DNA of 37,992 bases from a virus. Where the stretch lies: the IMG/VR virus record IMGVR_UViG_3300048930_001142; one strand, given 5' to 3'. The notes below the pieces were generated by a model. The model did not search any database and was not told the DNA's origin. It saw only the letters and a program-made list of their open reading frames with translations. The position numbers were made by a program, and so were the translations under genes. This document shows, one piece after another, positions 6,334-37,992 of the stretch (positions within the stretch are counted from its first letter, which is position 1; the number at the start of each line of letters is the position of its first letter).

Positions 6334-7464
6334 CTACTCCATAAAGAAAATGGCAGGCTTTCGCGCCGAGCGAGAAAAAAGGACCTGCTCCTCCTCCAGT
6401 ATCCTTAGGCTCACAAGCCCCTCCTTTAAGCCCAAAGCTGCAACGTCTGCCTCGGAGAACTCAAACTCGACAAGCCCGCAGCTCAGATAGAGATACTTCT
6501 CGCTGTAGGCGGCCGTTTCCAGGCGAAAGCGTCGTTGATAGGTGGCATCCAGATAAAACTCCAGCGTCAGCTCGCGCGGGAAAGACGCGGCCGTGCGCAG
6601 AAGCCAGAGGTCCCTGATCCCAACTTTTAGGCTGCCGGTCGTCTTCTTGGTAAACCTGTAGTCGATAAGCCCCGTATCTCGGACTGGAGACGAGAGGTCG
6701 AGCTCAATCTCTTGCAGGAGAGCTTGAGTCCCCGCCCCGGCAGGCCAGCCGATAAGAGCCCCCAGCCGCCCCTTGTAGCGGGCAAGTTCATCACGCGCCT
6801 CAGCCTTTGCGGCCTCAAGCTCCGCTTTGACCCCCTGAACAAGCCTCTCCGTCTCGGCCTTTTGGGCCTGAAGCTCGCCACGAAGCGCCGCAAGCGAGGC
6901 CTTGGCGACCTCCCTCAAAGTCAAAAGCTCCCCGCGGGTGGCCGCGAGGTCTCGCATCAGCTCGAGCGTGTGGCGCTGGCCTTGAGTGAGAGAAAGCGCC
7001 ACCGCGGCAAGCTCTCTTGCCAGGGAGAGGTTGAGGCGCTCGCCGACCCCATCGACTGCAATGAGCGAGTCGGGGATCTCCTCGTGGATGAGGTCGATGC
7101 CAAAAAGCAGGTCTTCCGACGCTATCCGCTTGGCGAGGATCTCGCCTCTCTTGGAGAGGACTGCAAAGAGAAGGGGCGCGTCCACCCCTTCGAGGCTTGC
7201 CACAATCCCCATCTCGCCGACGTCATAGCCTTCTCCCCCGCCGCGAAACTCGGCTGTGAGGTGAACGCGGTTTCCAGAGACCCGGTTTGAGTCGGCAAGG
7301 CTCGAGCCCTCGACCCTATCCTTGAGAGCCTCCTCCAAGCCGGTGGGGTCATAAGACGCCCGGCCCAACTCAATGCCGACAAAGCGAAGCCTCTTGCCCC
7401 TGGCCTCGGCCTCGGCCAGGGCCTCTAGCCCGCGTCTTGTGATCTTGGGACGCGACAGAGCCAT
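6334..7464 (-). CDS. Tail fibre protein (short, P2 gpH position)
   Basis: 376 aa directly downstream of the gpI-like gene. The N-terminus resembles fibre-attachment regions (KITRRGLEALAEAEARGKRLRFVGIELG) and the centre is a long coiled coil. Confidence 0.65.
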   Translation of the reverse strand: MALSRPKITRRGLEALAEAEARGKRLRFVGIELGRASYDPTGLEEALKDRVEGSSLADSNRVSGNRVHLTAEFRGGGEGYDVGEMGIVASLEGVDAPLLFAVLSKRGEILAKRIASEDLLFGIDLIHEEIPDSLIAVDGVGERLNLSLARELAAVALSLTQGQRHTLELMRDLAATRGELLTLREVAKASLAALRGELQAQKAETERLVQGVKAELEAAKAEARDELARYKGRLGALIGWPAGAGTQALLQEIELDLSSPVRDTGLIDYRFTKKTTGSLKVGIRDLWLLRTAASFPRELTLEFYLDATYQRRFRLETAAYSEKYLYLSCGLVEFEFSEADVAALGLKEGLVSLRILEEEQVLFSRSARKPAIFFME

Positions 7465-8030
7465 CAGCGCTCCACGAGCGCGGCAATGCGCTTGATGCGA
7501 GTCAGGCGCGCAAACATCGCGGCCCCGACGGCAGCGTCGGCCTCAAACATGATGTCGAGGTCAAAGCGGGACCTAAGGGGCTTTAGCGACTCGATGACCC
7601 GCAGGATGCGCCTCCGATCAGCCTCGCCCAGGGGGCGGTTGTCCTTGTTGAGGAGGATGACCTTGAAGGTGTAGGGCTCCTTTGGCTCGGGGTGGTCCCA
7701 CCACTCGCGAATCCTTGCCCTGACGCCAAGGGTCTCCATGGCCATGTCAATCGCAGCAAGAGTGCCGCGCAGCCGCCTGATCTTGTCAAAGCGCCCAATG
7801 ATCTCGCGCCGCCGCCTGATCAGGTCGTCTTCGCCCCCTACTGCGACAAAGTCCTCGTCCCAAAGCTCAACCCCCCGCTCCCAAGCCAGATACGGCAGAA
7901 AGGCCGGCGGGCAGGTGGCGGGGTCAAAAAGCGAGGCAAAGTCAAAAGAGAGGCCATGAAGACGCTCTCCTGCGACCTCTTCGAGTGCTCTCTCAAGCGG
8001 CGTAGAGTTTTTCGGCAGTAGGCTTGTCAC
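7464..8030 (-). CDS. Baseplate/tail protein, P2 gpI-like
   Basis: 188 aa. N-terminal LLPKNSTPLERALEEV motif typical of the tail protein I family. Follows the gpJ-like gene. Confidence 0.8.
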   Translation of the reverse strand: MTSLLPKNSTPLERALEEVAGERLHGLSFDFASLFDPATCPPAFLPYLAWERGVELWDEDFVAVGGEDDLIRRRREIIGRFDKIRRLRGTLAAIDMAMETLGVRARIREWWDHPEPKEPYTFKVILLNKDNRPLGEADRRRILRVIESLKPLRSRFDLDIMFEADAAVGAAMFARLTRIKRIAALVER

Positions 8031-8890: not shown

Positions 8891-9231
8891 CGCTCAAGCC
8901 TCACAGCGAGCGAAAACGGCGTGTCTGTCAGCTTGATGACGCCGTCAAGCAGGATGGAGACATTCCCGTCGGGTAGCTTTTTCTCCTCCTCTGGCCCATC
9001 GAGCACCTTGACGGCGTTGAGCCTCACCCGGGGTTCCCAGCGGGCTACGGCCTCGTGGACAGCCGTAAAGATCGACATCTTGTCGATCCCCCTGCCGAGC
9101 AGCTCAAAGAGCCTGGAGCCATAGTCTCTGAGCATGACGCGCGAGCCCTTGGGCGTCGAGAGGATGTCTTCGAGGCTTTGGCGAATGTGCTCCTCAGGAG
9201 AGAGCCTCTTTCCCGTGCGGCGCGACATCAT
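8887..9231 (-). CDS. Baseplate protein, gpW/gp25 family
   Basis: 114 aa. SLEDILSTPKGSRVMLRDYGSRLFELL matches the GPW/gp25 signature. Confidence 0.85.
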   Translation of the reverse strand: MMSRRTGKRLSPEEHIRQSLEDILSTPKGSRVMLRDYGSRLFELLGRGIDKMSIFTAVHEAVARWEPRVRLNAVKVLDGPEEEKKLPDGNVSILLDGVIKLTDTPFSLAVRLER

Positions 9232-9413
9232 CCAAACTTTCCTTTCCCGCTGCCGGGGTCGACCTGAACCTCGTTTTTCTCGACGATGTAGGCGACAAGC
9301 TCGGCGAGAAGATCGGCCAACACGCCTCCCCTGGCCCCTTCGGCGTCGAGCTTGAAGCCCAGCTCTTTCATCTTGGCGAGTATCCTCTCTCTCACTTCGG
9401 CCTCGTTAAGCAT
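9228..9413 (-). CDS. Hypothetical small protein between the gpV-like and gpW-like genes
   Basis: 61-aa ORF with overlapping start and stop codons relative to its neighbours. No motif recognised. Confidence 0.5.
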   Translation of the reverse strand: MLNEAEVRERILAKMKELGFKLDAEGARGGVLADLLAELVAYIVEKNEVQVDPGSGKGKFG

Positions 9414-9963
9414 GCTTGGCCTTGCAGCGGGTAGAGCCCTGCGGGTGCGGCCCCCCGGTAAAGGCGCAGACGGCCTCTGTCGTCACAACTCCTGCGGCCG
9501 CGTCGGCGCCGCCGAGCGCTACTGTTTCAGCCTCGACGACGACCGCCTTGGCCTTTACGACGATGCTGGCGCCGCCCTCGACCTCGAGCCTTGCCCCCTC
9601 GGGCAAGACGACCCGCATGGCTTTGGCCGCCTTGTCGTAGGACACGCTCGCGCCGTCGCTATAGCTCAGACGGTGACCATCCTCCTTCGGCAAGCTGTCT
9701 TTTGTCATGACAGCCCCGAGAATGACCCCCTGAGCAAGCGAGCCAGACGGAAAAAGACAAAGGACCTGCTCTCCGACCTCGAGCGGCCAGTTCTCGCGGT
9801 CGCCTCGTCCTCTTCGTTTCAGAGTCGAAAGCGGCGGGGTCTCCAGGCCGCCCTCGATCCTGACCCGTGCTCTTGCACCGAAGTCCTGGGTGGCCGTGAC
9901 GACGCCAAAGCTCACAAGGCTTGCAAGCTGGCGCCGCATCTCAGCTGCCTCAAACGCCTTCAC
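9406..9963 (-). CDS. Baseplate assembly/spike protein, P2 gpV-like
   Basis: 185 aa. ARVRIEGGLETPPL...WPLEVGEQVLCLFPSGSLAQGVILGAV fits the gpV OB-fold pattern. Confidence 0.8.
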   Translation of the reverse strand: MKAFEAAEMRRQLASLVSFGVVTATQDFGARARVRIEGGLETPPLSTLKRRGRGDRENWPLEVGEQVLCLFPSGSLAQGVILGAVMTKDSLPKEDGHRLSYSDGASVSYDKAAKAMRVVLPEGARLEVEGGASIVVKAKAVVVEAETVALGGADAAAGVVTTEAVCAFTGGPHPQGSTRCKAKHA

Positions 9964-22277: not shown

Positions 22278-22601
22278 CTACGTCTGGTAAGCCGGCGGCA
22301 AACACGAATAGACACCCTCGCCCACCAGCTCGGCGCCGTCCCAGCTCCAAACAACAACGTCCCCCTCGCCAGGAGAGGGACCTGGCAGCGGCGTAAATCG
22401 ATAGGGTGGCTTGCCGGTCGAGGTCCAAAGCTCCGGATTGCGCTCGGCCGTCTCGATGACAAAGCGGATCTTCGTGAGATACTTCTCGGCCGTCTCGATC
22501 GCGCCTGAATAATCCGCCTTGTCCAGAGCCCGGCGCAATACCGCCTGATAGACGGCCGGCGAACGCCACCGCCATGTCGCCCGCTTCTGGTTCGTCATCA
22601 A
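22278..22601 (-). CDS. ParE/RelE-like toxin candidate (paralog of 30026-30352)
   Basis: 107 aa downstream of, and overlapping, a Phd/YefM-like gene. Shares WRW, ...ET..+Y, GDVV..S and LPP features with the second pair. Confidence 0.45.
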   Translation of the reverse strand: MMTNQKRATWRWRSPAVYQAVLRRALDKADYSGAIETAEKYLTKIRFVIETAERNPELWTSTGKPPYRFTPLPGPSPGEGDVVVWSWDGAELVGEGVYSCLPPAYQT

Positions 22602-22918
22602 GCCGTCTCACTCTCAGGCTTCGCGGCAGAATCACCGGCGTCGTGGTCGCTGCTGCCTTCAAGCTTCAGCATCAACGCACGATACTGCTCGCGCACCTCG
22701 CGCAGCTCCTGCTCGAGCGCCTTCGGCACGACCTCTTTCCCTCTCTCGCCACTGTGCCAGCAGGTAACGAGATCCAGGTAGTGGTCGAGCGGGATGACCA
22801 CCTTGACCGGGTGGGCACGGTGGAGCACCTGCAAGGGCTGCTCCCGCGTCACGCCGGCAAAGAGGGCGTTTGAGTCTTTCTTCAGGTCGGTGAGGGTCAC
22901 GGTCTTGAAGTTAAGCAT
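22598..22918 (-). CDS. Phd/YefM-like antitoxin; start revised to ATG at 22918
   Basis: GAGGAG lies 8 nt upstream. MLNFKTVTLTDLKKDSNALFAGVTREQPLQVLHRAHPVKVVIPLDHYLDL fits the Phd/YefM N-terminal domain. Confidence 0.65.
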   Translation of the reverse strand: MLNFKTVTLTDLKKDSNALFAGVTREQPLQVLHRAHPVKVVIPLDHYLDLVTCWHSGERGKEVVPKALEQELREVREQYRALMLKLEGSSDHDAGDSAAKPESETA

Positions 22919-23156
22919 TGGTAACTCCTCAGTTTCACAGAGCGAAAGCCCCGCATAGCTGTTAAGAGTACCGTTATCGGAACCTTTCGGCAAGCGCTGA
23001 AGCACAAAGCACCCGTCCCCGTCGCTCAAGAGGGCGGCCGGCCACCCCCTCGGGGCCGCCTGACATCTCAGAATGGCGCTAGGCTAGGGTCGATCGGCTG
23101 GGTGCATCGTCTTTTTGCAGATAAAGAGGGCTAGCGACCTCGGGAGAGCCGCTTGC

Positions 23157-23822: not shown

Positions 23823-26800
23823 ATGCCCAAGCACCACCAACTCTCCTCGGCTCTGACCGGGCTGTGGCTCGCCCTGGCGCCGCTGGCCGCCAGCGCCGGC
23901 CCATTCCCGCTCTCCTACGGTGGCCGCCTGACAGGTCCGACCGGCAGCCCGCTTGCGGGGCCCGTCGATCTTGCCGTCCATTTCTTCCGAAGTGAGACCG
24001 GCGGCAGTCCGCTGCTGGGCGAGCCAGTCGTCGTCCCCGCAGTGACCCTCCAGGAGGGGGTCTTTCAGCTGACGCTCGATCTCCCGGTCGAGGATTACAG
24101 CGCGATCTTCCCCTCGGCTGAGACGGCCGCCTATATCGAGATCACCGATCAAACCAACGCGCGCACCTATCCTCGGCAGCGCTTTGCAGTCGTGCCGCTG
24201 GCAGCCCGGGTGCCGGTCGACGGCAGCACCGTGACGTTCGACGAAAGCGGCCGCCTGACCGCCACGCTCCCGACTGCTGGCGCGACTACACCGGGCGTGA
24301 TCAAGGCGACCAATGCCTTTGTCGAAGTCGACGCTGGTGGCGACATCACCGCCATCAAACAGGCGCAGAGCTTCTCCGGCACCCTCAGCGGCGACGTCAC
24401 CGGCACGCAGAATGCCACGGTGGTCACCAAGATCCGCGGCAAGGCCTTCACCGACACTCTCGATGCCAGCAACGACCAAAAGGTCATCAAGTGGGACAAC
24501 GCCACCAGTAGCTTCAAGCTCATGAACGACGTTGTCAGCGGCGGCCTGAGCACCGGCGACGTCACGTCGACCATCATCGCCGACGGGACCATCGTAAATG
24601 CCGACATCAGCGCTTCGGCCAACATCGCCGCCAGCAAGATCGGCACGGGAGCAGTCGACAACACGCACTTCAATTATTTGGCGGGCCTGACCTCGGACCC
24701 CCAAGCCCAACTCAACGCCAAGCAGGCGGCCATTACTGCGGCCACCGTCCTTCCGGTCGGCTCGCTCACCAGCGACCTTCAAGCGGGTGTGACGCTTGAC
24801 GGCTATGGCAGCGGTGCCGGGCAAACCGGCGAGCTGCGCTTTGAGGAGCGTGACGGGCTCGAGAATAACTACGTCGGCCTCAAGGCGCCCGACGCGGTTG
24901 CAAGCAATCAAATCTGGACTCTGCCTGCCGCAGACGGCACGGCCGGCCAGCTGCTGTCGACCAATGGCTCGGGTGTGCTGACGTGGGCGACCGCGACCAC
25001 GGCCAGCTCGTCCGACACGTTCATCAACAAGACGATCAACGCCGACAACAACACGATCAGCAACATCGAGGACTCGGAGATCAAGGCGGGTGCCAATATC
25101 GCCCGCGCCAAACTGGCGTCCGGCACAGCCTCCCACGTGCTCGTCAACGACGGCAGCGGCGTGATGAGCTCCGAGGCGCAGCTTGCGATCTCCCGCGGCG
25201 GCACCGGGGCCGCCAGCGCCAGTGCGGCGCTCACCAACTTGCTGCCGTCGCAGACCGGCAACTCCGGCAAGGTGCTCTCGACCGACGGCACGGCGGCCTC
25301 GTGGACTGCTCTCAGCACCACCAACTGGAACACCGCCTACGACGACCGCCTGAAATGGGACGGCGGCGCCACCGGTCTCGTGGCCGCCACCGGCCGCGCC
25401 AGCCTCGGCCTCGGCACGGTCGCCACGCTGGATGTCGGCACCGCCGCCGATCAAGTGGTGCAGCTTGACGCTACCGCCAAGCTGCCAGCCGTCGACGGTT
25501 CGGCCGTCTCAAACCTCACTCCCGCCAACCTCAGCGCGGCCGTGGCCGTCGCCAAGGGCGGCACCGGCGCGACGACCGCCGACGGAGCGCTAACGAGTCT
25601 TCTGCCGGCCCAGACCGGCAACTCCGGCAAGGTGCTCTCGACCAACGGCAGCACGACGTCGTGGCTTGCTCTCAGCGCCACCGACTGGAACACCGCCTAC
25701 AGTGATCGGCTGCAGTGGGACGGTGGCGCCAGCGGCCTCAATGCGACGACCGCCCGCACGAGCCTCGGCCTCGGCACAGCTGCCACGCTGAACGTCGGCA
25801 CTGCCGCGAGCAATGTCGTGCAGCTAGACGGCACCGCCAAGCTGCCGGCTGTCGACGGTTCCCAGCTCACAGGCGTCGTCACGACGGCTGCGGTCGACAG
25901 CGCCGGCGCCGTGATGAACGGCGACTTCGGCTCAGACGGCCTAATGGCACGCACCGCGGCAGGGACCTACAGCGTCGTCGCCGACAACTCTGCAAACTGG
26001 AACACCGCCTACACAGACCGCATGAAATGGGACGGCGGCAGCACCGGCCTGGTCGCCGCCACGGCGCGCACCAGCCTCGGCCTCGGCACGGCTGCCACAC
26101 TGGATGTCGGTACCACCGCGAGCAAAGTGGTCCAACTCGACGGCAGTGCCCGGCTGCCGGCCGTCGACGGCTCGCAGCTCACCAATCTGCCGACAGCAAG
26201 CCTCACCTGCCCCACGGGCTATATCCTGGTGCCGGGCAATGCGAGCTTCACCAACGCAAGCTTCTGCGTCATGAAGTACGAGGCCAAAAAGGACGGTACC
26301 ACCGGCCAAGCAGTGTCGACCTCTGCGGGCACCCCCTGGGTCAACGTCTCCTGGTATGAGGCGCAAAGCGCCTGCAAGCGGGTCGGCGGCCACCTCGTCA
26401 ACGAAGGCGAGTGGATGACCATCGCCCGCAACATCGAGGCCACCGCCATTAACGATATCGACTCGGCCGCCGGTATTCAGCTTGCCACTGGCCACTCTGA
26501 TAACTCTCCGGCCAGCGCCTTGGCAGCAGTGGCCGACCCCTCGCTCTCGAGCTGCACGCTCACGTTGGAACTATCGAATGCCAGCAACAACTCCTGCGCC
26601 CTGCGTGGCCCCGGCACCAATGCTGGCAACAGCACCGACTATGGCTACTACGGCACGGGCAACGGCTACAGCACAGCCTATTCGGCTGGCGCCGCCAACA
26701 AATCGCAAATGCGCACCCACGTCCTCAGCAACGGCAATGTCATCTGGGACCTCGCCGGCAACGTCTGGGAATGGACGGATGCACAGTGCGACACGACCAG

Positions 26801-27065
26801 CTGGTACACCACCGGATGGGTCGAGTGGAACAACGCCAACGTGACCGACTGGGAAAAGCTGGTAGCCGGCCCGAGTGGCTCGCTGACCTCCTCTAACGGG
26901 GCCGGTCAGTATTATGGGTGCACCGCGAGTGGCAATGCCCTGCTCCGCGGCGCCTACTGGAACGATGGCTCGTACGCCGGCGTGTTCGCCGCCTATTTGG
27001 TCAATGGGCCGTCGGACGTCTACAGCGTCGTGGGCTTCCGCTGCGCCTTCTCCAATGCCCACTAA
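23823..27065 (+). CDS. DGR target protein: signal-peptide-like N-terminus, fibre-like repeats, C-terminal FGE-sulfatase/C-type-lectin-fold domain carrying the VR
   Basis: 1080 aa. N-terminus MPKHHQLSSALTGLWLALAPLAASAGP. Repeated NWNTAY.DR.KWDGG..GL.A.TAR.SLGLGTAATL.VGT modules. C-terminus GEWMTIARN...GNVWEWTD...LRGAYWNDGSYAG...GFRCAF. Confidence 0.9.
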   Translation: MPKHHQLSSALTGLWLALAPLAASAGPFPLSYGGRLTGPTGSPLAGPVDLAVHFFRSETGGSPLLGEPVVVPAVTLQEGVFQLTLDLPVEDYSAIFPSAETAAYIEITDQTNARTYPRQRFAVVPLAARVPVDGSTVTFDESGRLTATLPTAGATTPGVIKATNAFVEVDAGGDITAIKQAQSFSGTLSGDVTGTQNATVVTKIRGKAFTDTLDASNDQKVIKWDNATSSFKLMNDVVSGGLSTGDVTSTIIADGTIVNADISASANIAASKIGTGAVDNTHFNYLAGLTSDPQAQLNAKQAAITAATVLPVGSLTSDLQAGVTLDGYGSGAGQTGELRFEERDGLENNYVGLKAPDAVASNQIWTLPAADGTAGQLLSTNGSGVLTWATATTASSSDTFINKTINADNNTISNIEDSEIKAGANIARAKLASGTASHVLVNDGSGVMSSEAQLAISRGGTGAASASAALTNLLPSQTGNSGKVLSTDGTAASWTALSTTNWNTAYDDRLKWDGGATGLVAATGRASLGLGTVATLDVGTAADQVVQLDATAKLPAVDGSAVSNLTPANLSAAVAVAKGGTGATTADGALTSLLPAQTGNSGKVLSTNGSTTSWLALSATDWNTAYSDRLQWDGGASGLNATTARTSLGLGTAATLNVGTAASNVVQLDGTAKLPAVDGSQLTGVVTTAAVDSAGAVMNGDFGSDGLMARTAAGTYSVVADNSANWNTAYTDRMKWDGGSTGLVAATARTSLGLGTAATLDVGTTASKVVQLDGSARLPAVDGSQLTNLPTASLTCPTGYILVPGNASFTNASFCVMKYEAKKDGTTGQAVSTSAGTPWVNVSWYEAQSACKRVGGHLVNEGEWMTIARNIEATAINDIDSAAGIQLATGHSDNSPASALAAVADPSLSSCTLTLELSNASNNSCALRGPGTNAGNSTDYGYYGTGNGYSTAYSAGAANKSQMRTHVLSNGNVIWDLAGNVWEWTDAQCDTTSWYTTGWVEWNNANVTDWEKLVAGPSGSLTSSNGAGQYYGCTASGNALLRGAYWNDGSYAGVFAAYLVNGPSDVYSVVGFRCAFSNAH
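25226..26180 (+). repeat. Intragenic repeat modules of the target gene (two copies of about 360 nt plus a partial third; approximate limits)
   Basis: Repeated DNA/protein blocks ALT.LLP.QTGNSGKVLST.G...SW.ALS...WNTAY.DRL.WDGG... . The aactggaacaccgcctac-type cores lie near 25323, 25683 and 25997. Confidence 0.75.
26936..27049 (+). other. DGR variable repeat (VR)
   Basis: 114 bp matching TR 29408-29521, with 11 mismatches that all fall at TR adenines. Confidence 0.92.
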
Positions 27066-27104
27066 GTCCTTGGTTTCTTGGACCTTGGTCCTTGGTGTTG
27101 GGGT

Positions 27105-27123
27105 CTGGGGGCGTAGCCCCCAG
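27105..27123 (+). promoter_or_regulatory. GC-rich hairpin downstream of VR/IMH (CTGGGGGC-GTA-GCCCCCAG), candidate DGR target-recognition stem-loop
   Basis: Perfect 8-bp inverted repeat with a 3-nt loop, 55 nt after the end of VR homology. Confidence 0.6.
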
Positions 27124-27130
27124 CGGCTCC

Positions 27131-27165
27131 ATTTCGGAAATTTCCGAAATTTCGGAAATCATGCC
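27131..27165. repeat. Palindromic TTCSGAAA repeat block 1 (9-bp period AAATTTCSG)
   Basis: atttcggaaatttccgaaatttcggaaatcatgcc. Contains overlapping 16-bp perfect palindromes. The 33-nt core is identical to the one in block 2. Confidence 0.9.
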
Positions 27166-27227
27166 GAAACAGCACGTTAACGTAACATGCTAATCTAATT
27201 GACTATGCGTGTTTTATGATCAGCCGT

Positions 27228-27295
27228 CATTTCCGAAACTTCCGAAATGTCACTTCGGCAACTTCGGAAATTTCCGAAATTTCGGAAATCATGCC
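27228..27295. repeat. Palindromic TTCSGAAA repeat block 2 (upstream of the HTH gene)
   Basis: catttccgaaacttccgaaatgtcacttcggcaacttcggaaatttccgaaatttcggaaatcatgcc. Confidence 0.9.
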
Positions 27296-27366
27296 AGTCC
27301 GGAATGTTTCCCCTTTTGAGCGAGCATGCCCCCTGCTAGGGTACTCTGCACTCCTAATCAAGGATC

Positions 27367-28056
27367 ATGTCGCCCGCGATGCCACGCCGCAGCCAGCCCC
27401 ACTCCCAGCTTGAGGTAAGCGTCGATACTGCCGCGAAATCTCTCGGTGTTTCTGAGCGCATGGTTCTGAACTACATCAAGGCCAGACAGATCAAAGCGCT
27501 GCGTGTCGGCAAGCGCTGGTTTGTCGACCTCGCCTCGCTGGAGGCCTTTCGACAGGCCAGCGGTCTCACCCAAAGGGACCCTCAGGCCATTTCCGAAACT
27601 TCGGAAATTTCCGAAATTTCGGAAACGCTTCCGAAGTCGCCTGCGACCACAGGCAGCGAAGGCCCGCCGCGCCCAAGGCGAAGCTCCTCCGGGAAGAACC
27701 TCGATGGGCTAGCCTGCTACCGGCTGTGCCTGGAGGCTTTCCGGATGCCGATGTGGGCAGACGCCGACAAGCTCCGCTTCGGCCATCGACTGCGTGATCT
27801 GCAGGGCGCGATTCTCGAGCAGCTCGGCTCGGGCTTCTATTCGTATGGCGCCGAGAAGCGCGCCTACTATGACCGTTCCCGGGGACTGATCGGCGCGGCG
27901 CTGGCGCTCGTCTACAGCGATCCCGATGCGAGGCTGCGTTGGGCCAGCGAAGTCGCCTTTCTGGAGGGTGATGTGCTGCCCGCGTTTGCGTCGTTGATCA
28001 AGAAAATCGAGCGCGGTCAGGATCGCGAAGGCCGGGGACGACGCCATGAGCGCTAG
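27367..28056 (+). CDS. DGR-associated HTH protein: excisionase/MerR-type HTH N-terminus + helical C-terminal domain (possibly four-helix-bundle/Avd-like)
   Basis: 229 aa. HTH: VSVDTAAKSLGVSERMVLNYIKARQIKALRVGKRWFVDLASLEAF. The C-terminal ~110 aa are helical (ACYRLCLEAFRMP...LRDLQGAILEQLGSG...). Lies between the target and avd; its stop overlaps the avd start. Confidence 0.7.
   Translation: MSPAMPRRSQPHSQLEVSVDTAAKSLGVSERMVLNYIKARQIKALRVGKRWFVDLASLEAFRQASGLTQRDPQAISETSEISEISETLPKSPATTGSEGPPRPRRSSSGKNLDGLACYRLCLEAFRMPMWADADKLRFGHRLRDLQGAILEQLGSGFYSYGAEKRAYYDRSRGLIGAALALVYSDPDARLRWASEVAFLEGDVLPAFASLIKKIERGQDREGRGRRHER
27588..27636. repeat. Palindromic TTCSGAAA repeat block 3 (inside the HTH gene, translated as ISETSEISEISET)
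   Basis: catttccgaaacttcggaaatttccgaaatttcggaaacgcttccgaag. Confidence 0.9.
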
Positions 28057-28423
28057 AAGCCCCAAGATCCTCGCCGACAGCTACCAATTGACCGTCATGG
28101 TGTTTGGCAGAACGCGCAGCTTTCCCAAACACTACCGCCCGACACTTGGTCGCCGCCTGGAGGACCGCGCGATCGACCTGACGTCTGCCGTCCGCGTCGC
28201 AAGCCTTGCCAAAGGCGGCGGTAAAGACTCGCGGCGGACTGCCTCCTTGGAGAGCGCCTCGGAGCTTCTGGACGAGATCCGGATTCTGCTTCAGCTCGCG
28301 CATGACATGCAGATCATTCCGACTGCCGGCTATGCCGAGCTGAGCGAGCTGACCGCCGAGGTCGGTCGACAAATCGGTGGCTTTGGAAAGTTCGAGGCGG
28401 CTGCCCGTGACCACACTCCTTGA
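28046..28423 (+). CDS. avd: DGR accessory variability determinant (Avd)
   Basis: 125 aa, basic and helical. The C-terminus LTAEVGRQIGGF parallels Bordetella bAvd LIAEVGRILGSW. Lies immediately upstream of, and overlapping, the RT. Confidence 0.8.
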   Translation: MSARSPKILADSYQLTVMVFGRTRSFPKHYRPTLGRRLEDRAIDLTSAVRVASLAKGGGKDSRRTASLESASELLDEIRILLQLAHDMQIIPTAGYAELSELTAEVGRQIGGFGKFEAAARDHTP

Positions 28424-29354
28424 CGAGGTGACGGCGTTTGGGAACCTTGCGCGGGCGTTTCAGCTCTGCGCACGCGGCAAGCGTGCCTCGACCGGCTACC
28501 AGCGCGCCATGTTTGCGCACGGCGAGAAGCTCGTCGCCATGCGCGGCAGGATCCTATCAGGCCAGTATCGCTGGGGACGCTACCGGGAGCTCTTGGTGAG
28601 GGACCCCAAGTCGCGTCGCGTATTGGCGGCTCCCTTTATGGACCGCGTCGTCCATACAGCCATCCACGAGATCATCGAGCCGATCCTCGATCCCCTGATA
28701 CCGGAGAGCGTGTATGCCTGCCGTCATGGCAAAGGCAACCGGAAGGCCGCGACCGATCTTCTGGAGGTGCTTTGCGAGCATGGCAAAGACCGCTTCGTCA
28801 TCAAGCTCGACGTCGCGCAATACTTTGCCTCGATCCGGCATGACGTGCTGCTCGCCAAGCTTTTCGAGGCGCTGCCAGACCGGAGTCTCGAGCCTCTTCT
28901 GGCCTCGCTCCTGCGAAGCCATGCCGAGTATGCCTCTCGAGGGTACGGCATCCCGATCGGAAACCTGACGTCCCAGGTGTTTGCCAACTTCTATCTCGTC
29001 TCCGCCGACCGTGTCGCCTCCGAGCTGCTCGGAGGCGGCTTCTACTTCCGCTACATGGACGACATGGTTCTCGGGGGCCGCAATAAGTCGGTGGTCCTCA
29101 ACGCGGCCGATGCTGTGACCCAGCACGTCGAAAGCGACCTGAGGCTTTCGATTCCCTACTTCAAGCGGATGCCGCTCGGTAACGCGCCCGTGCCGTTTCT
29201 AGGATACGTGCTCGATCACAGCGGCTATAGAATTCTAAGCCGCAACAAGAGGAGGTTTATCAAACGAATGCGACGCCTGGAGCGTTCGGGAGCCCGCCCG
29301 AGCCGGATGGCGCAGAGCGAGTTGTCGTTTCGTTCTTTTGAGAATTTGTTATGA
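28377..29354 (+). CDS. DGR reverse transcriptase (GTG start at 28377, or in-frame GTG at 28407)
   Basis: 325 aa. LDVAQYFASIRHDVL, GIPIGNLTSQVFANFYL (DGR-type motif) and FYFRYMDDMVLGG (YxDD). Confidence 0.92.
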   Translation: MALESSRRLPVTTLLDEVTAFGNLARAFQLCARGKRASTGYQRAMFAHGEKLVAMRGRILSGQYRWGRYRELLVRDPKSRRVLAAPFMDRVVHTAIHEIIEPILDPLIPESVYACRHGKGNRKAATDLLEVLCEHGKDRFVIKLDVAQYFASIRHDVLLAKLFEALPDRSLEPLLASLLRSHAEYASRGYGIPIGNLTSQVFANFYLVSADRVASELLGGGFYFRYMDDMVLGGRNKSVVLNAADAVTQHVESDLRLSIPYFKRMPLGNAPVPFLGYVLDHSGYRILSRNKRRFIKRMRRLERSGARPSRMAQSELSFRSFENLL

Positions 29355-29407
29355 AAAAGGTGTCGGGCTCAGAATGGTCGCGCCTGCCGTTCAGCGTTGT
29401 CCGAAGG

Positions 29408-29521
29408 TGCCCTGCTCCGCGGCGCCAACTGGAACAATGGCACGAACGCCGGCGTGTTCGCCGCCAATTTGAACAATGGGCCGTCGAACGTCAACAGCAA
29501 CGTGGGCTTCCGCTGCGCCTT
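29408..29521 (+). other. DGR template repeat (TR), adenine-rich AAY codons
   Basis: 114 bp homologous to the VR. 22 adenines, 11 of them substituted in the VR. Starts 54 nt after the RT stop. Confidence 0.92.
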
Positions 29522-29654
29522 GTCGTTCGCCCGGCGGCCGTGAGACTTGGGAGTTTGCTGTCTGCGTGAGGGAAGTCTTTTCAGCGATGAGAAGACCACG
29601 CTGAGCCTTCTGATATTTGTCCCAAGGCACTTCGAGCCTGGCACCTGTGGCTGA

Positions 29655-29688
29655 CCGAGCTGGGGGTGGGAAACCACCCCCAGCTCGG
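29655..29688. terminator. Very stable hairpin (15-bp perfect stem, GAAA loop); possible bidirectional terminator or 3' structure of the DGR RNA
   Basis: ccgagctgggggtgg-gaaa-ccacccccagctcgg, between the convergent DGR (+) and minus-strand genes. No U-tract on either strand. Confidence 0.4.
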
Positions 29689-29716
29689 GGTCCGAATCGA
29701 TGTCAAGTACGACGCT

Positions 29717-30069
29717 CTATCCGTCCAGAAAATGTTTTTCAATCCACGCCGAGGCATCGCTGACGTCCGCCTCCCGAGCCCAGCGCATCAGCTCATCCAG
29801 ACGCTCCGCGTCGTCGGTAGCTATGCGGCTCGGCATCGCGTTGTCGAAGCGAAAATAGGCTTTGCTGAGTAGGCACGCCATCCGGCACTGTCATTTCTGG
29901 CACGACGCTTGCGGTTTGCTGACGATGCGAAATCGACACCATGTTCCACACTACAGCTGCCGTGCCATTGAGCCTCGATGTCACGGCCACCGTCACGAGA
30001 AACTCGCCCATGCGGCACGGGCCTGTCAGCTCCCAAAGAACTTCGGCGGTAGATACGGAAAAACACCAT
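29717..30069 (-). pseudogene. Relic of a patatin-like phospholipase C-terminus (frameshifted, no N-terminal catalytic part)
   Basis: Hand translation of 29881-29717: MACLLSKAYFRFDNAMPSRIATDDAERLDELMRWAREADVSDASAWIEKHFLDG*. This parallels the intact patatin C-terminus QCRQILGGNAYFRCDEVLPRRVATDETAALADLMEWAQSVKLTAAVSWLEEKYLG*. Weaker similarity continues upstream in another frame. Confidence 0.55.
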
Positions 30070-30352
30070 GAATCATGACGCCAGCCGAACTGTACGAATA
30101 AAGAATTACGTCGCCCTGAGCTATGCCGGTCGATGCGATCGTCTTCACGCGGTACGCTTTGTCCGCAGTCAGCGGCGCTGCCTCGGGATAACGCGCAAGC
30201 TCCTCGATTGCCGCGAGGACGTGCTCACGATAGCGGCGCCTGGTCTCTAACGGAAACGGCTGAAAGGCACCCATCGCACGGGCACGGCCACGAAATCGCC
30301 GTCGCGCACCTTCGGAGGCCCACCGCCATGGCAAGGCGGCACGCTCAGTCAC
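30026..30352 (-). CDS. ParE/RelE-like toxin candidate; start revised to GTG at 30352
   Basis: The GTG overlaps the antitoxin stop (GTGACTGA). C-terminus: YRVKTIASTGIAQGDVILYSYSSAGVMIHGVFP. Paralogous to 22278-22601. Confidence 0.5.
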   Translation of the reverse strand: MTERAALPWRWASEGARRRFRGRARAMGAFQPFPLETRRRYREHVLAAIEELARYPEAAPLTADKAYRVKTIASTGIAQGDVILYSYSSAGVMIHGVFPYLPPKFFGS

Positions 30353-30734
30353 GGTCTTCGGCCTCCAGCGCGTCGAGCTCGGCATCTTCCTGTTCGGCCG
30401 CGGCGAGCTCCTCAGCTGCTGTCGTAGTCGGCAGGGGCTCCTGGTGCTCGAAGAGCTGCCAGAAGGTCAGCAGCTCCAAGTAGCGTTCTTCGGTCACAAC
30501 GACCTTGATGGGGTGGCCGCGGTGGACGATGCGCAGGGCCTTGTCGTCTGTCACGTCGCCGAGAAGGGCGTTACCTTCGGGGCTTCGTACTTTGCTCACC
30601 GTAACGGTGCCGGCAAAAAGCGGCTGTTGGCTACGCGCTTTGGCGGCCGGAACCGTAGGCTCTTTGGCGGGAGCCGGTTGGCGTTCTGGTCTCATAAACG
30701 TCCTTTGCCTTTCCGGATCTGTTTGAAGATCCAT
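30345..30734 (-). CDS. Phd/YefM-like antitoxin (N-terminally extended paralog of 22598-22918)
   Basis: ALRIVHRGHPIKVVVTEERYLELL versus PLQVLHRAHPVKVVIPLDHYLDLV in the other copy. Acidic C-terminal tail. Confidence 0.6.
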   Translation of the reverse strand: MDLQTDPERQRTFMRPERQPAPAKEPTVPAAKARSQQPLFAGTVTVSKVRSPEGNALLGDVTDDKALRIVHRGHPIKVVVTEERYLELLTFWQLFEHQEPLPTTTAAEELAAAEQEDAELDALEAEDRD

Positions 30735-30888: not shown

Positions 30889-31821
30889 TCAACCTAGGTA
30901 TTTTTCCTCGAGCCAAGACACTGCTGCGGTGAGCTTGACACTTTGAGCCCACTCCATGAGGTCGGCTAGCGCGGCCGTCTCATCTGTTGCAACGCGGCGC
31001 GGAAGCACCTCATCACAGCGAAAATAGGCATTTCCCCCGAGAATCTGTCGGCACTGGTAGTCGGCAATCCCGACGTTGGCGTCGATCATTAGGCTTGTCA
31101 TCGGCTGAGCCCATTGGGCAAAGCCCCAGTCCAGGGTCTTGCCGGAGATCCACTGCGGGCTCCTCCCGGTTGAGAGCGAGAAGACGCGCAGCGAGAGGAG
31201 ATCCTGACGGCCGACGTCGGGGTTGATGGCGAGCGCCACGGCCGCCATCGCCGGGTTGTTGCACCCGACCCCGCCGTCGACATAGCCCTGGTAGCTGGGA
31301 AAGTAGGTCGGCGCCGCGCTCGATCGCAAGGCTACGTCGACTGTCCGTTCCGCGCCGTCTGAATCGGCTCCGGGGTAGTTGTGAAAGAACTTCATTTTCC
31401 ACGTCCGCGGCGAGCCCTCGTTGTCGAGGTCGAAGCTTGGAACGAGCACGCGCCGCTTCAAGCCCGAGAGCAGCCCTTCGCCGAAGATCCGCTCAAGGAC
31501 CCGCTTAAGGTAGCCCTGGTCATAGTCAGCGCCGATGACCTTGCCCATGTCCTGGAGGTTGTCGCACCAGGAGTCGTCAAAGACCTTGGCGCCATGCTTT
31601 TCGAAGAACGTGACAAGCTCGCTTGCCCCCATCCCCGAGGCCAGCGCCATGGCGCTGATCGCCCCGATCGAGGTTCCCGCAAAAAGACGCACCGAGGGCA
31701 AGAACGCCGGCACCGCTTCCGCCAGCCGAGCCAGGATCACAGCTTGATAGGCTCCACGGATACCGCCGCCATCGAGCGCCAAGATTCGATAGGGTCGCAT
31801 CCTCGGCTCAACACGCATCAA
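30889..31821 (-). CDS. Patatin-like phospholipase
   Basis: 310 aa. ILALDGGGIRG (oxyanion loop), GTSIGA (GxSxG nucleophile), VDGGVGCNNP (catalytic Asp). Confidence 0.88.
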   Translation of the reverse strand: MMRVEPRMRPYRILALDGGGIRGAYQAVILARLAEAVPAFLPSVRLFAGTSIGAISAMALASGMGASELVTFFEKHGAKVFDDSWCDNLQDMGKVIGADYDQGYLKRVLERIFGEGLLSGLKRRVLVPSFDLDNEGSPRTWKMKFFHNYPGADSDGAERTVDVALRSSAAPTYFPSYQGYVDGGVGCNNPAMAAVALAINPDVGRQDLLSLRVFSLSTGRSPQWISGKTLDWGFAQWAQPMTSLMIDANVGIADYQCRQILGGNAYFRCDEVLPRRVATDETAALADLMEWAQSVKLTAAVSWLEEKYLG

Positions 31822-31879
31822 GCCACCTTTTGGTTATGGTTTGTTCTCTGGGTCGTGCTTCAGACCTGCCGGGATAGCT

Positions 31880-32452
31880 TCAGGCCGACTCCAGCGCGAC
31901 ATGAAACAAACGCCGCATCCAGCCACGCCCGAAGGTCTTGAACGTCGCAAGCCCTGCGTAGCGCTCGGCACGCGCAGCCATGAAGTCGACAACAAGCTTC
32001 TGGGGGTCAGCTTTCGCGGCAGCGCCAAGCGTCAGTGACCCTATAACGCCGTCGACTGTGACCCCCAAGGCCTTCTGCAAGGTCCGGATGGCAGGCTTCA
32101 CCCCTTGATTGATAGCCGCGTCAAACACTGCCAGACGCAGCTCAGCTGGCAGCTCGCTGCAGCGCGCCGCATCCCAAAAATCACGCCGGTAGATAGCGCG
32201 GGCCTCGTCTGGGGTCAGATCAAGGATCCCCTGCCGGCCAAGCTTGGGGTAGGCCGCAAGCGAGATGCCGTAGTTTGTCAGCCCGCCCGGGTCGCGCGGA
32301 TCGTCAACCAGCCCGCCTTCCAGCTCCAAAATGATCGAGACGGCCTTGCGAAACTGCACCGCGCCCCCCCCCAGAGCCCACGATTTCGTGTGATCTCCAA
32401 GATTTTGGAACATTCCTTGCTCTTTGTCTCGCCGGCGCCCCTGGGCCGTCAC
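31880..32452 (-). CDS. GH108-type lysozyme / endolysin with C-terminal peptidoglycan-binding region (start may be the internal ATG at 32413)
   Basis: ILELEGGLVDDPRDPGGLTNYGIS...YRRDFWD...VFDAAINQG...LGVTVDGVIGSLT fits the GH108 + PG-binding pattern. Confidence 0.8.
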   Translation of the reverse strand: MTAQGRRRDKEQGMFQNLGDHTKSWALGGGAVQFRKAVSIILELEGGLVDDPRDPGGLTNYGISLAAYPKLGRQGILDLTPDEARAIYRRDFWDAARCSELPAELRLAVFDAAINQGVKPAIRTLQKALGVTVDGVIGSLTLGAAAKADPQKLVVDFMAARAERYAGLATFKTFGRGWMRRLFHVALESA

Positions 32453-35786: not shown

Positions 35787-35890
35787 GGTCCACAGAGACT
35801 GGGTCCGCACAGACTGGGTCCGCACAGACTGGGTCCGCACAGACTGGGTCCACACAGTCTGGGTCCACACAGACTGGGTCCACACAGACT
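35787..35890 (-). repeat. Inverted-orientation array of the 15-bp repeat: 6 full units + 1 degenerate, three units with a G variant
   Basis: gggtccgcacagact x3, gggtccacacagtct, gggtccacacagact x2. This is the reverse complement of the unit at the window ends. It lies 23 nt downstream of the ParB-like stop. Confidence 0.95.
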
Positions 35891-35912
35891 GTGCTCAGCA
35901 TGACAGCGCAAG

Positions 35913-36491
35913 TCATAGCAGCCCAGGTGCAGTAGGTTTCGCTATAATTTCATCTGGTTCAGCCACACGATAAGCCCATGTTTGGCGCAAGCCGGCGTCG
36001 TATTCTCGGACAACCGAAATAGCTCCAACGTCAATCAGCCTTTTGATGAGTGGAGCAATCGCGGTGCTTCTCAAATCGAACAGCTTTGCATAGGAGCTAT
36101 GAGGCAGCTCTATCAGGCCAGTATTCGGATCACGCATCTCGCGAATAGCGAAATAATAGCCGGCATCGCCTCGAAGCAAACGAGTAATTACCGTTATCTC
36201 CCGGGCACGAGCTGATAAACTGCCATCTTCTTGCGAAGAAGCTCGCGTATTCTCCGTTTCTTGGTCCTTACGTGCGCTGTCTGCCCTTATCGCATCGGCT
36301 ACATGATGATGAACATCCGATGTTTGCTCTTCGACTCTTTCGCGAGCATTAGCGGCCACAGTGAGATGCTCGTCAGGACGACGAGCTTGCCCCTGACGAT
36401 CTATCTTGCGAAGCTTCTGCGGATGACTTCCAATGCGCCCCTGCTTCGCCAGCTTTTTTAGCATTTCCTGAGCATCAGGCATTTCTAACAC
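35913..36491 (-). CDS. Small ParB-like / centromere-binding adaptor candidate (winged-helix-like C-terminus)
   Basis: 192 aa. Overlaps the parA stop by 17 nt. Charged N-terminal half. C-terminus: YFAIREMRDP...SYAKLFDLRSTAIAPLIKRLIDVGAISVVREY. The assignment rests mainly on position. Confidence 0.5.
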   Translation of the reverse strand: MLEMPDAQEMLKKLAKQGRIGSHPQKLRKIDRQGQARRPDEHLTVAANARERVEEQTSDVHHHVADAIRADSARKDQETENTRASSQEDGSLSARAREITVITRLLRGDAGYYFAIREMRDPNTGLIELPHSSYAKLFDLRSTAIAPLIKRLIDVGAISVVREYDAGLRQTWAYRVAEPDEIIAKPTAPGLL

Positions 36492-37692
36492 CTCGCTTCT
36501 CTACGGCAACTCTCCGAGTCGCTGGCTTTTTGCGAAGAGTAACTGCATCGAGGCCGATAATCGCCTTAACAAGCTTATCGAAGTCATCGGCAACACCATT
36601 GCGTCTTCCGCAATCGTACAGACCACGACCAAAATGAATCGCGTTCTTAAGTTCAGCCGAAGTGCGGATGTAGGTGCTATACAGCTTATCCGGATAATCC
36701 TGATAAAGTCGCGACATGTAATGCACGCTTGTGACTTCGCGTGCATCGAAACGCCCAAATATGATTCTTTCCTTCATCGTTTGACGAATCGATGGCCACT
36801 GATTTTTTAAGCGTTCGAGCTCACCAAGTGTCTGCGTAAGCCCTGATATGCACAGCTTGTCTGGATAAACCGGCAAAAGAACAGTGTTCGCAAAGCACGC
36901 AATTGCGGCGTTCGTCGAGGAAAGAGCAGGTGCACAGTCGAAAATGATGTAGTCATACTGTTGCAGAACTTCCGCAAATTTTAGGCGAAACGCCCGCTCC
37001 ACATTTATAGCGCTACGCTGGAGCGTAATCTCAAGATTGCTATTGAGAAGAGTGCTTGGGATGAGATGCAGATTCGGCGTAACCTTGACGATGAGGTCAC
37101 TGACTGTGACAGCAAGCTCTCCACGCTTCTGCTGATCGAACAAATCAGCAAGGATAGCTGTATCCTCATCGACCTCGATTCCATATTGTTCTAGTTCGAA
37201 CGCCGTAGTTAAGTTTGACTGCGGGTCCGCATCGACGACGAGTACTTTCCCGCCGAAAGCAGAGATTCGCGTCGATAACACGTAGCTCGTCGTAGTCTTA
37301 GCTGCTCCCCCCTTGGTAATTTGAACCGCAATTACATGCGCGGTATGCTCTGGCTGATCCAGAGGGAACAGAAAACCTCGGTCAGCAAAAATCGCTCGCA
37401 CATCGTCTGGATGAAGAGTGCGGGCAGCGCCGCTCTTGCTCGTAGAGCGCTCGAAATGCCGAGCCGACGCTTTTTTTAGAATATCGCTTAGTGCCGCTGT
37501 CGATACGCCGATCGTATCGCGCAAGTCTGTTGAGCGGAGCCCAAACGGATTTCTGCAAGCACCACCAGCAAAATCGACGTCTGCCTTCTGGGCTGACTCC
37601 CCTCCTTGCCTCTGCTCACCTTGATCGTCAGCCGCCCCACTTGGGTTGTTATGGTCCTTGCGATCAAGTCGCATTCTTCGCTGCGTCACCAT
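36475..37692 (-). CDS. parA: ParA/SopA-type partition ATPase (long, type Ia-like with N-terminal extension)
   Basis: 405 aa. Deviant Walker A: VIAVQITKGGAAKTTTSYVLS. VLVVDADPQSNLT. Size and N-terminal region as in P1 ParA / F SopA. Confidence 0.88.
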   Translation of the reverse strand: MVTQRRMRLDRKDHNNPSGAADDQGEQRQGGESAQKADVDFAGGACRNPFGLRSTDLRDTIGVSTAALSDILKKASARHFERSTSKSGAARTLHPDDVRAIFADRGFLFPLDQPEHTAHVIAVQITKGGAAKTTTSYVLSTRISAFGGKVLVVDADPQSNLTTAFELEQYGIEVDEDTAILADLFDQQKRGELAVTVSDLIVKVTPNLHLIPSTLLNSNLEITLQRSAINVERAFRLKFAEVLQQYDYIIFDCAPALSSTNAAIACFANTVLLPVYPDKLCISGLTQTLGELERLKNQWPSIRQTMKERIIFGRFDAREVTSVHYMSRLYQDYPDKLYSTYIRTSAELKNAIHFGRGLYDCGRRNGVADDFDKLVKAIIGLDAVTLRKKPATRRVAVEKRGVRNA

Positions 37693-37850: not shown

Positions 37851-37992
37851 CCCAGTCTGTGTGGACCCAGTCTGTGTGGACCCAGTCTGTGTGGACCCAG
37901 TCTGTGTGGACCCAGTCTGTGTGGACCCAGTCTGTGTGGACCCAGTCTGTGTGGACCCAGTCTGTGTGGACCCAGTCTGTGTGGACCCAGTC
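37851..37992 (+). repeat. 15-bp tandem array (9 full units + 7 nt) running off the window end; upstream of parA
   Basis: cccagtctgtgtgga repeated exactly from 37851 to the last base. Confidence 0.95.

Follow-up and report, generated by a model that had tools for sequence, protein, structure and literature searches.

Diversity-generating retroelements (DGRs) are known in tens of thousands of instances, and both their regulation and the targeting of their cDNA to the variable repeat (VR) are poorly understood. In the published classification, elements with the order avd, reverse transcriptase (RT) gene and template repeat (TR) constitute architecture B2, and the accessory classes named in the main text of that study are Avd, HRDC, MSL and CH1, with none of a helix-turn-helix (HTH) type among them (Wu et al. 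2018, NAR 46:11; PMC5758913). The ribonucleoprotein (RNP) of the Bordetella phage BPP-1 element has been described as containing a duplex between the TR and the spacer (TR:Sp), a duplex between upstream and downstream segments (the 'cPRT stop' duplex) and a tetraloop stem-loop, a set of features predicted for 207 of 278 DGRs with Avd (bioRxiv 10.1101/2023.10.23.563531). Here we analyze a DGR in the IMG/VR virus record IMGVR_UViG_3300048930_001142, a 37,992-nucleotide stretch of DNA referred to in its entirety as the window. The segment extending from position 23823 to approximately 29698 very probably represents a complete DGR that was recently active in evolutionary terms, works in the manner of BPP-1, and belongs to a clade typified by an accessory protein that we term ORF229.

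The repeat pair of the element was recovered by a repeat finder at 26936-27052 and 29408-29524, with a spacing of 2472 bp, and a MAFFT alignment of the VR with the TR contains no gaps. Base-by-base comparison of the 114 bp that constitute the two repeats (Table 1) reveals 11 mismatches, all 11 of which are at positions occupied by adenine in the TR. The composition of the TR is 22 A, 39 C, 33 G and 20 T, so that 11 of its 22 adenines are changed in the VR, and the hypergeometric probability of all 11 mismatches falling on A is 1.1e-9. The adenines are distributed over 12 codons, of which AAC accounts for seven, AAT for three, and ACG and AGC for one each; nine of the 12 are altered in the VR, with AAC appearing as TAC, GTC or GAC, AAT as GAT or TAT, and ACG as TCG; by arithmetic from these codons the number of possible peptides is about 9e12 (15^10 x 4 x 4). 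A preliminary description of the locus had given this pair at the same positions and distance, with adenine-only differences affecting half of the TR adenines, the same codon changes and up to 12 diversifiable codons, and all of this is reproduced by the present alignment, search and count, which show no mismatch at a non-adenine TR position within the 114 bp. The final 21 bp of the VR (27029-27049) are free of adenine, GC-rich and the same as in the TR, and past 27049 the copies differ at non-adenine positions (CTCCAATGCCCAC following the VR and GTCGTTCGCCCGG following the TR). By analogy with BPP-1, this tract together with the diverged 27050-27062 may be regarded as resembling an IMH site (for initiation of mutagenic homing); divergence of this type is usual at an IMH/IMH* boundary and would not contradict the adenine specificity.

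The genes located between the repeats point in the same direction. The RT carries IGNLTSQVFANFYL and YMDD, which conform to the DGR-type (I/L/V)GxxxSQ and YxDD motifs, matches phrog_1423 at 7.5e-70, aligns with BPP-1 Brt at 31% identity across 82% of its length (E 4e-23), and shows 31-39% identity to RTs from recognized DGR phages such as BPP-1, VP585 and phiARM81. Of the 159 loci fetched by RT similarity, 121 hold a repeat pair with at least 80% of its mismatches on A. The product of the preceding open reading frame (ORF) is recognized by phrog_3206, 'Avd protein of DGR' (1.9e-16), and by an Avd profile built here (1.2e-30), which detects 67 Avd ORFs in the loci collected. The Avd-like ORF and the motif-bearing RT that had been reported between the repeats are thus both supported by profile matches and by their translations. 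A reading in which the repeats are a plain duplicated gene fragment and the RT is that of a retron, a group II intron or a defense system could draw on partial, sub-threshold matches of the RT to group II intron, Drt and retron models in NCBIfam and PADLOC, the latter yielding many partial DRT-type matches, none of them informative. The NCBIfam scores, however, lie far under their cut-offs (87 bits against 300 for the group II intron model, 48 against 235 for retron St85, and 54 against 390 for Drt2), and an Rfam scan of the whole window returned no family at gathering score and no group II intron or retron RNA. A duplicated fragment would also have to account for adenine-only mismatches with a chance of about 1e-9, and a non-DGR RT for the adjacent Avd and the DGR-type RNA around the TR. 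The probability of this reading is negligible and we consider it refuted in practice; the RT is of the DGR type, as had been proposed.

The gene that receives the variation encodes a 1080-residue target protein and ends 16 nt after the VR. Its translation contains GNVWEWTD and GFRCAF motifs, and its match to the Pfam FGE-sulfatase (formylglycine-generating enzyme) family is weak. An AlphaFold2 (AF2) model of residues 791-1080, derived from a 44-sequence alignment, has a mean predicted local distance difference test (pLDDT) value of 93.5, and its best Foldseek matches in the PDB are the DGR variable proteins TaqVP (5vf4, E 4e-8), Mtd (1yu0-1yu4, about 3e-6) and TvpA (2y3c), along with formylglycine-generating enzymes. 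The model and these matches uphold the earlier assignment of the VR to an FGE-sulfatase/C-type-lectin fold. A total of 1216 homologues of this domain were found, many of them from the candidate phyla radiation (CPR) and DPANN and many with a prepilin N-terminal fusion, which suggests that one variable domain is common to distant hosts and different display scaffolds. The nearest relatives (40-60% identity; P0064, P0073, P0114, P0117 and others) come mostly from Patescibacteria (CPR) and DPANN archaea.

The target N-terminus reads MPKHHQLSSALTGLWLALAPLAASAG, which we interpret from its sequence as a probable signal peptide. The region preceding the lectin-fold domain contains three copies of a repeat of about 300 nt (25197-26168), the later two being 78% and 61% identical to the first, and each copy encodes a module of about 100 residues resembling fiber repeats (NWNTAY..RL.WDGG..GL..LGLGTAATL.VGT....VQLD..AKLPAVDGS). 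The N-terminal 330 residues have 8 weak, unnamed homologues, and searches of the target against Pfam and PHROGs gave no match outside the VR region. The target is a fiber-like protein that is probably secreted or surface-exposed. Given its signal-peptide-like N-terminus and the presence of a separate tail-fiber gene (6334-7464), it may be either a virion fiber or a secreted or host-surface protein.

The conservation of the cassette extends to its RNA. The roughly 190 nt that follow the TR are conserved in relatives with RTs that are just about 60% identical, and RNAalifold predicts four elements in this region: a helix joining the 3' end of the TR to the first part of the spacer (29509-29545), a long-range helix CTTGGGA/TCCCAAG (29546-52 with 29620-26), an internal stem enclosing a variable hairpin, and a terminal hairpin, which in the window (29655-29688) has 15 bp, a GAAA (GNRA) loop and a z-score of -6.6, and is followed by an invariant GGTCCGAA. 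The TR is further bracketed by a 13-bp duplex between segments upstream and downstream of it (Table 1), in which 7 of the 13 pairs show compensatory changes and 91% of the alignment cells are paired. For the structure as a whole, across 7 sequences, 92.9% of cells are paired as against 32-49% when the partners are slid, compensatory changes occur in 20 pairs, and the covariation score was reached in none of 500 shuffles; in L165, one of the related loci, the long-range helix is present in a compensatory CTTGAAA/TTTCAAG version. Going by the published description of BPP-1, these elements correspond to those of its RNP, and the covariation shows that the RNA architecture seen there by cryo-EM is kept where the TR lies downstream of the RT. 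Since the conserved structure reaches 29698, the element must end at least there. Of the span 23823-29688 originally proposed, the left end stands and the right end has to be moved outward. Directly after the RNA hairpin region, a segment of about 316 bp (29706-30021) is missing from the otherwise collinear contigs L001 and L002, indicating an insertion or deletion at the right edge of the cassette.

These two IMG/VR contigs, with RTs 94% identical to that of the window and cassettes of about 90% nucleotide identity, also bear on the activity of the element. Their TR differs from the window TR at 3 non-adenine sites, and at these sites the VR of the window and that of L001/L002 each match their own TR. 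Between the two lineages, the VRs are unlike at adenine sites. This check covers the two lineages with the TR on the contig, namely the window and L001/L002. A scan of viral contigs with a VR query carrying N at each adenine-templated position uncovered a third VR allele in L163 and L164, which have the L001 bases at the 3 non-adenine sites and whose own TR lies off the contig. The three alleles differ solely at TR-adenine positions and at these 3 sites, and the flanks of the target gene are 88-93% identical among the three lineages. That the VR tracks its own TR at sites changed after the lineages split implies a transfer of information from TR to VR since the divergence of these phages, in agreement with the earlier characterization of the element as active or recently active.

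The same data bear on the possibility that the DGR is an inactive relic, with TR/VR differences left from past activity. Such a relic would fit the outcome of the degenerate-VR scan of metagenome contigs, which gave 0 matches and hence nothing beyond the IMG/VR contigs. It is at odds with the intactness of all ORFs and of the catalytic YMDD, with the agreement of each VR with its own TR at the 3 sites altered after the split, with the occurrence of three VR alleles among close relatives, and with the maintenance of the RNA structure by compensatory changes. We accordingly regard a relic as improbable. With three sister phages bearing three VR alleles, this is a clean natural example of a DGR that is well suited to read-level studies of diversification.

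Between the VR and avd lies the gene for ORF229, which overlaps avd by 11 nt. Its AF2 model has a winged helix at residues 16-65, followed by a linker that is disordered (70-112) and by a four-helix bundle modeled with confidence (113-228). The N-terminal domain is detected by Pfam HTH_17 (PF12728; 36.1 bits against a cut-off of 27), and its Foldseek matches are the Pukovnik excisionase Xis (4j2n; 40% identity over 48 residues, TM-score 0.78-0.80 on the target), RdfS, BldC and RacA, all of which bind repeated DNA sites as multimers. A fold search of BFVD with the complete model found matches that are all single-domain excisionase or HTH proteins. The bundle shows weak fold matches to structures of the PF05635 family (2gsc and 2rld, E 0.3-1.3). 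A derivation of the C-terminal part as a second Avd is unsupported, in that BLASTP against the window Avd gives nothing and the isolated domain has no Pfam match at E 10. A function as a genuine Xis, that is, a recombination directionality factor, was likewise set aside, given that the gene adjoins avd and not an integrase gene and that the recombinase encoded in the window is 8 kb away.

The phyletic and contextual pattern of ORF229 is distinctive. A word-indexed search found 7 homologues, and an exhaustive profile search found 962 (E<=1e-3), of which 171 are at E<=1e-10 and 66 representatives at E<=1e-30, the top matches being mostly full length. In all informative contexts sampled (L001/L002, L080, L081, L082, L085, L160, L165/L166, L168, L169 and L170) the gene adjoins bAvd, and also the RT wherever the contig reaches. 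In L168 the HTH gene is divergent from avd-RT, with two sites in the short intergenic region, and in L170 no phage genes are nearby, the neighbors being a GGDEF protein and a response regulator. Among the 159 RT-related loci, the family is confined to those with RTs at least 42% identical to that of the window, and it is present in 7 of these 8 loci (L001, L002, L080-L082, L084 and L085); the exception, L083, whose RT is 60% identical, has a different sequence, apparently an insertion, in place of the HTH and avd genes. No HTH- or excisionase-type DGR accessory is described in the literature searched, which was covered incompletely and included Wu et al. 2018 in its main text. ORF229 thus appears to be an undescribed DNA-binding accessory of this RT clade. 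In L160, we also observed a second RVT_1 gene (359 residues) between the VR-bearing target and the HTH-avd-RT unit (6413-7492, 8980-9950); the DGR RT of this locus is called as two short ORFs and may be frameshifted.

The ORF229 gene is associated with arrays of short repeats with the consensus TTCSGAA. A double-unit motif, TTCSGAAAYTTCSGAAA, occurs 17 times in the window with both strands counted, always within 27132-27625, as against 0 expected, and the arrays have no other occurrence in the 38-kb genome. Arrays are also found upstream of the HTH gene in L001, L085, L160, L165, L167, L170 (about 15 units) and L171, and in L080 and L081 they take a form with a 10-bp period, TTCCGGAAAT. In 6 of 7 loci, the 300 nt preceding the HTH gene show an excess of the TTCCG/CGGAA core of 9-17 fold or more relative to expectation; the maximal count per 300 nt is 7-20 in most lineages with the HTH protein, versus a median of 3, and at most 7, across 152 DGR loci (1.6 Mb) that lack the gene and from which such arrays are absent. 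For the majority of loci, the arrays occupy the interval that separates the VR from the accessory gene, within 80-250 nt of the VR end. In L160 they immediately precede the HTH gene and are separated from the VR by about 2.1 kb. The third array of the window encodes part of the ORF229 linker; L001 has one unit more at this point and P0003 the same peptide, from which it appears that a DNA-level repeat is tolerated inside the linker with a variable copy number.

Two further elements are located between the VR and the arrays. YCTTGG repeats immediately following the VR are also present in L001, L160 (5 copies), L165 and L170 (5 copies), and in L160 they remain with the VR, apart from the HTH gene and the TTCCG arrays. 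These repeats and the long-range spacer helix have CTTGG/CCAAG in common, which may be a coincidence. The GC-rich hairpin that follows, which may be the counterpart of the target-site hairpin/cruciform of BPP-1, is kept in L001; in L080 and L165, GCCCC-GTA-GGGGC is found at the stop codon.

With respect to the function of ORF229, we lean, by a narrow preference, toward the proposal that it occupies the TTCSGAA arrays ahead of its own gene by cooperative binding, in the manner of Xis and BldC on repeat arrays, and thereby regulates the transcription of avd-RT-TR. This operator/autoregulator reading is favored over one in which the arrays mark the target, because the arrays of L160 accompany the HTH gene 2.1 kb from the VR and the HTH gene of L168 is divergent. 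The alternative would be that ORF229 and its arrays act in homing and not in transcription, with the Xis-like domain coating the arrays on the VR side and the bundle contacting Avd or the RT, thereby bringing the RNP and the cDNA to the target. The usual position of the arrays a short distance past the VR is compatible with such a role, as are the fold matches to Xis-type proteins, which are architectural recombination factors acting on tandem sites, the ORF229/avd overlap, which suggests co-translation, and the third array within ORF229 in the window lineage. Conversely, it is the YCTTGG repeats and not the arrays that stay with the VR in L160, the two intergenic sites next to the divergent gene in L168 constitute a regulator-like layout, and the bundle is not detectably Avd-like. 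On balance we consider a homing role unlikely. Its most developed form, in which ORF229 would be the first component of a DGR to recognize DNA sequence, docking on the Avd-RT-RNA particle and delivering the cDNA, with the YCTTGG repeats and the GC-rich hairpin belonging to the same landing pad, is a speculative proposal that we hold to be rather unlikely; if true, it would offer a genetic handle on how the cDNA finds and replaces the VR.

It could also be argued that ORF229 has no connection with the DGR and is some other gene of the phage, for instance that of an excisionase or a small regulator, equivalent to the 'X' ORFs of Wu et al. 2018, and that the arrays are phage or plasmid iterons. 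Its matches to HTH_17 and excisionase families, the temperate appearance of a phage with a tyrosine recombinase and a ParA gene, and the caution in that study that nested ORFs are mostly not DGR components (PMC5758913) would be in line with this. However, the two-domain protein occurs beside avd in every informative context, including the phage-gene-free L170 and loci with RTs just 42% identical; it is restricted to the closest RT relatives (7 of 8 loci at 42% identity or above among 159, L083 excepted); the arrays are found nowhere else in the genome; and the recombinase of the phage itself is distant from the gene. We therefore regard an unrelated gene as highly improbable. The operator reading retains our preference, and as ORF229 is tied genetically to avd-RT and its presumed sites lie in cis, both regulation and cDNA targeting are open to simple assays in this system.

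Combining these elements, we envisage that ORF229, avd, the RT, the TR and the spacer RNA would be expressed as a single plus-strand transcription unit with overlapping genes, presumably one operon, and that the structured RNA surrounding the TR would be bound by a complex of RT and Avd. A cDNA, presumably primed from the spacer, would be synthesized faithfully at C, G and U and in an error-prone manner opposite adenine, and would replace the VR at the 3' end of the target gene. As a result, up to 12 codons (about 1e13 variants) would be randomized on the ligand-binding face of the C-type-lectin/FGE-fold domain at the end of a fiber-like protein, with a presumed biological ligand. Several observations weigh against this scheme or parts of it. 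Avd falls below the curated cut-offs of both Pfam bAvd (1.2e-8, 35.9 bits against 40) and NCBIfam DivGenRetAVD (2.4e-12, 47.1 bits against 80). The GC-rich hairpin is 55 nt past the end of the VR/TR homology and not directly adjacent to it. A scan of the cassette for promoters and terminators found no sigma-70-like promoter or canonical terminator, and nothing over shuffled expectation. The ORF229-family members L082, L168 and L169 have few or no arrays, and the suggested binding of the protein to the arrays is deduced from their co-occurrence in sequence. An assignment of the bundle to the Avd/23S rRNA-IVS family finds no support either, with E 0.07 in a hmmsearch with the 67-sequence Avd profile and an hhalign probability of 1.2%. 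Finally, the evidence for recent activity is indirect, being a comparison between lineages.

Table 1. Features of the DGR cassette and its immediate surroundings, with positions in the window
Feature	Position	Strand	Basis and remarks
Target (variable protein) gene, 1080 aa	23823-27065	+	ORF; signal-peptide-like N-terminus, fiber-like repeat region, C-terminal C-type-lectin (CLec)/FGE-fold domain with the VR
C-type-lectin/FGE-fold ligand-binding domain, residues 791-1080	26193-27062	+	AF2 model, Foldseek
VR	26936-27049	+	repeat finder, alignment, mismatch count
YCTTGG repeats, four, spacing 7-8 nt	27068-27095	+	directly after the target stop codon
GC-rich 8-bp hairpin, CTGGGGGC-GTA-GCCCCCAG	27105-27123	+	downstream of the VR, after the YCTTGG repeats; candidate
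TTCSGAA array 1, 3 units, 9-bp period	27130-27160		repeat search
TTCSGAA array 2, 5 perfect units and a degenerate TTCGGCA	27228-27290		repeat search
ORF229 accessory	27367-28056	+	between VR and avd; Pfam HTH_17, AF2 model, Foldseek, family contexts
TTCSGAA array 3, within the linker-coding part of ORF229	27588-27637		repeat search; encodes SETSEISEISE
avd, 125 aa	28046-28423	+	phrog_3206; 11-nt overlap with ORF229
DGR reverse transcriptase, 325 aa	28377-29354	+	ORF, IGNLTSQ and YMDD motifs, phrog_1423, similarity to BPP-1 Brt
RNA segment AGGTGTCGGGCTC just past the RT stop codon	29358-29370	+	pairs with GAGCCTGGCACCT at 29634-29646 in the 13-bp duplex bracketing the TR
TR, 22 adenines	29408-29521	+	repeat finder, alignment, mismatch count
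Structured spacer-like RNA 3' of the TR	29522-29698	+	93-95% of cells paired, 16-20 pairs with compensatory changes

The remainder of the window is the genome of a myovirus-like phage, which carries on its minus strand the genes for a terminase, portal, capsid-protease fusion, neck, baseplate, tail fiber, sheath, tape measure and gpD-like protein. It also encodes a 575-residue tyrosine recombinase, an endolysin, a patatin-like protein and a ParA-type ATPase, and a search of it found no tRNA or tmRNA. No deposited phage has a terminase more than 44% identical to its own. The element had been described as residing on a replicon with plasmid-partition genes; a ParA-type gene is indeed present, but the terminase, portal, capsid, sheath, tape measure and baseplate genes identify the replicon as a tailed-phage genome. 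A tandem array of a 15-bp unit, CCCAGTCTGTGTGGA, runs off the right end (37852-37992) and resumes at the left end (1-127), and, as it spans both ends, the record probably represents a complete circular or circularly permuted genome. About 6 inverted copies of the unit are located at 35797-35891, on the other side of the ParA operon, so that the arrays flank ORF192 (35913-36491) and the ParA-type ATPase (36475-37692), an arrangement reminiscent of a partition locus with centromere-like repeats, here carried by a phage. A gene for a patatin-like phospholipase (Pfam Patatin, 2.8e-24) adjoins that of the endolysin (phrog_315) at 30889-32452 on the minus strand.

The DGR is encoded on the strand opposite to the structural genes and has a two-gene module on either side (22278-23029 and 30026-30734, minus strand). 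The modules are paralogous, and in each of them the gene for a weakly Phd/YefM-like protein precedes one for a protein of 107-119 residues. BLASTP between the modules gives 41% identity over 51 residues (E 5e-13) and 30% over 71 residues (E 1e-10). These paired flanking modules may be toxin-antitoxin-like, and their placement could reflect the acquisition of the cassette.

In comparison with described systems, the cassette shares with B2 DGRs both the order of the core genes and the presence of an ORF nested between the target and the core, and since this arrangement matches a published architecture, the gene order is not new. The preliminary description had considered gene order and accessory content alike as non-canonical; the former part of this view has to be given up, and the latter holds, in that ORF229 and the arrays are unusual. 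The DGR as such is ordinary, and its unusual content is limited to the extra accessory ORF and the repeat arrays; the HTH-type ORF229 stands apart from the four accessory classes that the main text of Wu et al. 2018 associates with such elements (PMC5758913). With the BPP-1 element (mtd-avd-TR-brt) it has in common a location on a phage, a target of the C-type-lectin fold with the VR at its extreme 3' end, the presence of Avd and a related RT, adenine-specific TR-to-VR differences, a GC-rich hairpin (here a candidate one) downstream of the VR, and analogous RNA elements, namely the TR 3' end:spacer duplex, the upstream:downstream duplex and the tetraloop stem-loop. It differs from BPP-1 in having the order avd-RT-TR-spacer in place of avd-TR-spacer-RT, in the distance of the hairpin, which in BPP-1 is adjacent to the VR, in the presence of an HTH/four-helix-bundle gene and TTCSGAA arrays between the VR and avd, and in its target, which is 1080 residues long, has a signal-peptide-like N-terminus, and is encoded away from the tail module on the opposite strand. 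The DGRs of the Vibrio phages VHML and VP585 are likewise phage-carried, with TR regions 77% identical to the window TR over about 112 nt and RTs about 35% identical; in VP585, however, the TR is upstream of the RT, whereas it is downstream in the window. Lastly, among the small excisionase and MerR-like DNA-binding proteins that coat arrays of repeats, the Xis protein of mycobacteriophage Pukovnik, RdfS and Streptomyces BldC resemble the N-terminal domain of ORF229 in fold, and the ORF229 gene is preceded by arrays of short repeats with a period of 9-10 bp; unlike these proteins, ORF229 has this fold fused to a linker and a four-helix bundle and is tied to avd-RT, not to an integrase or attachment site.

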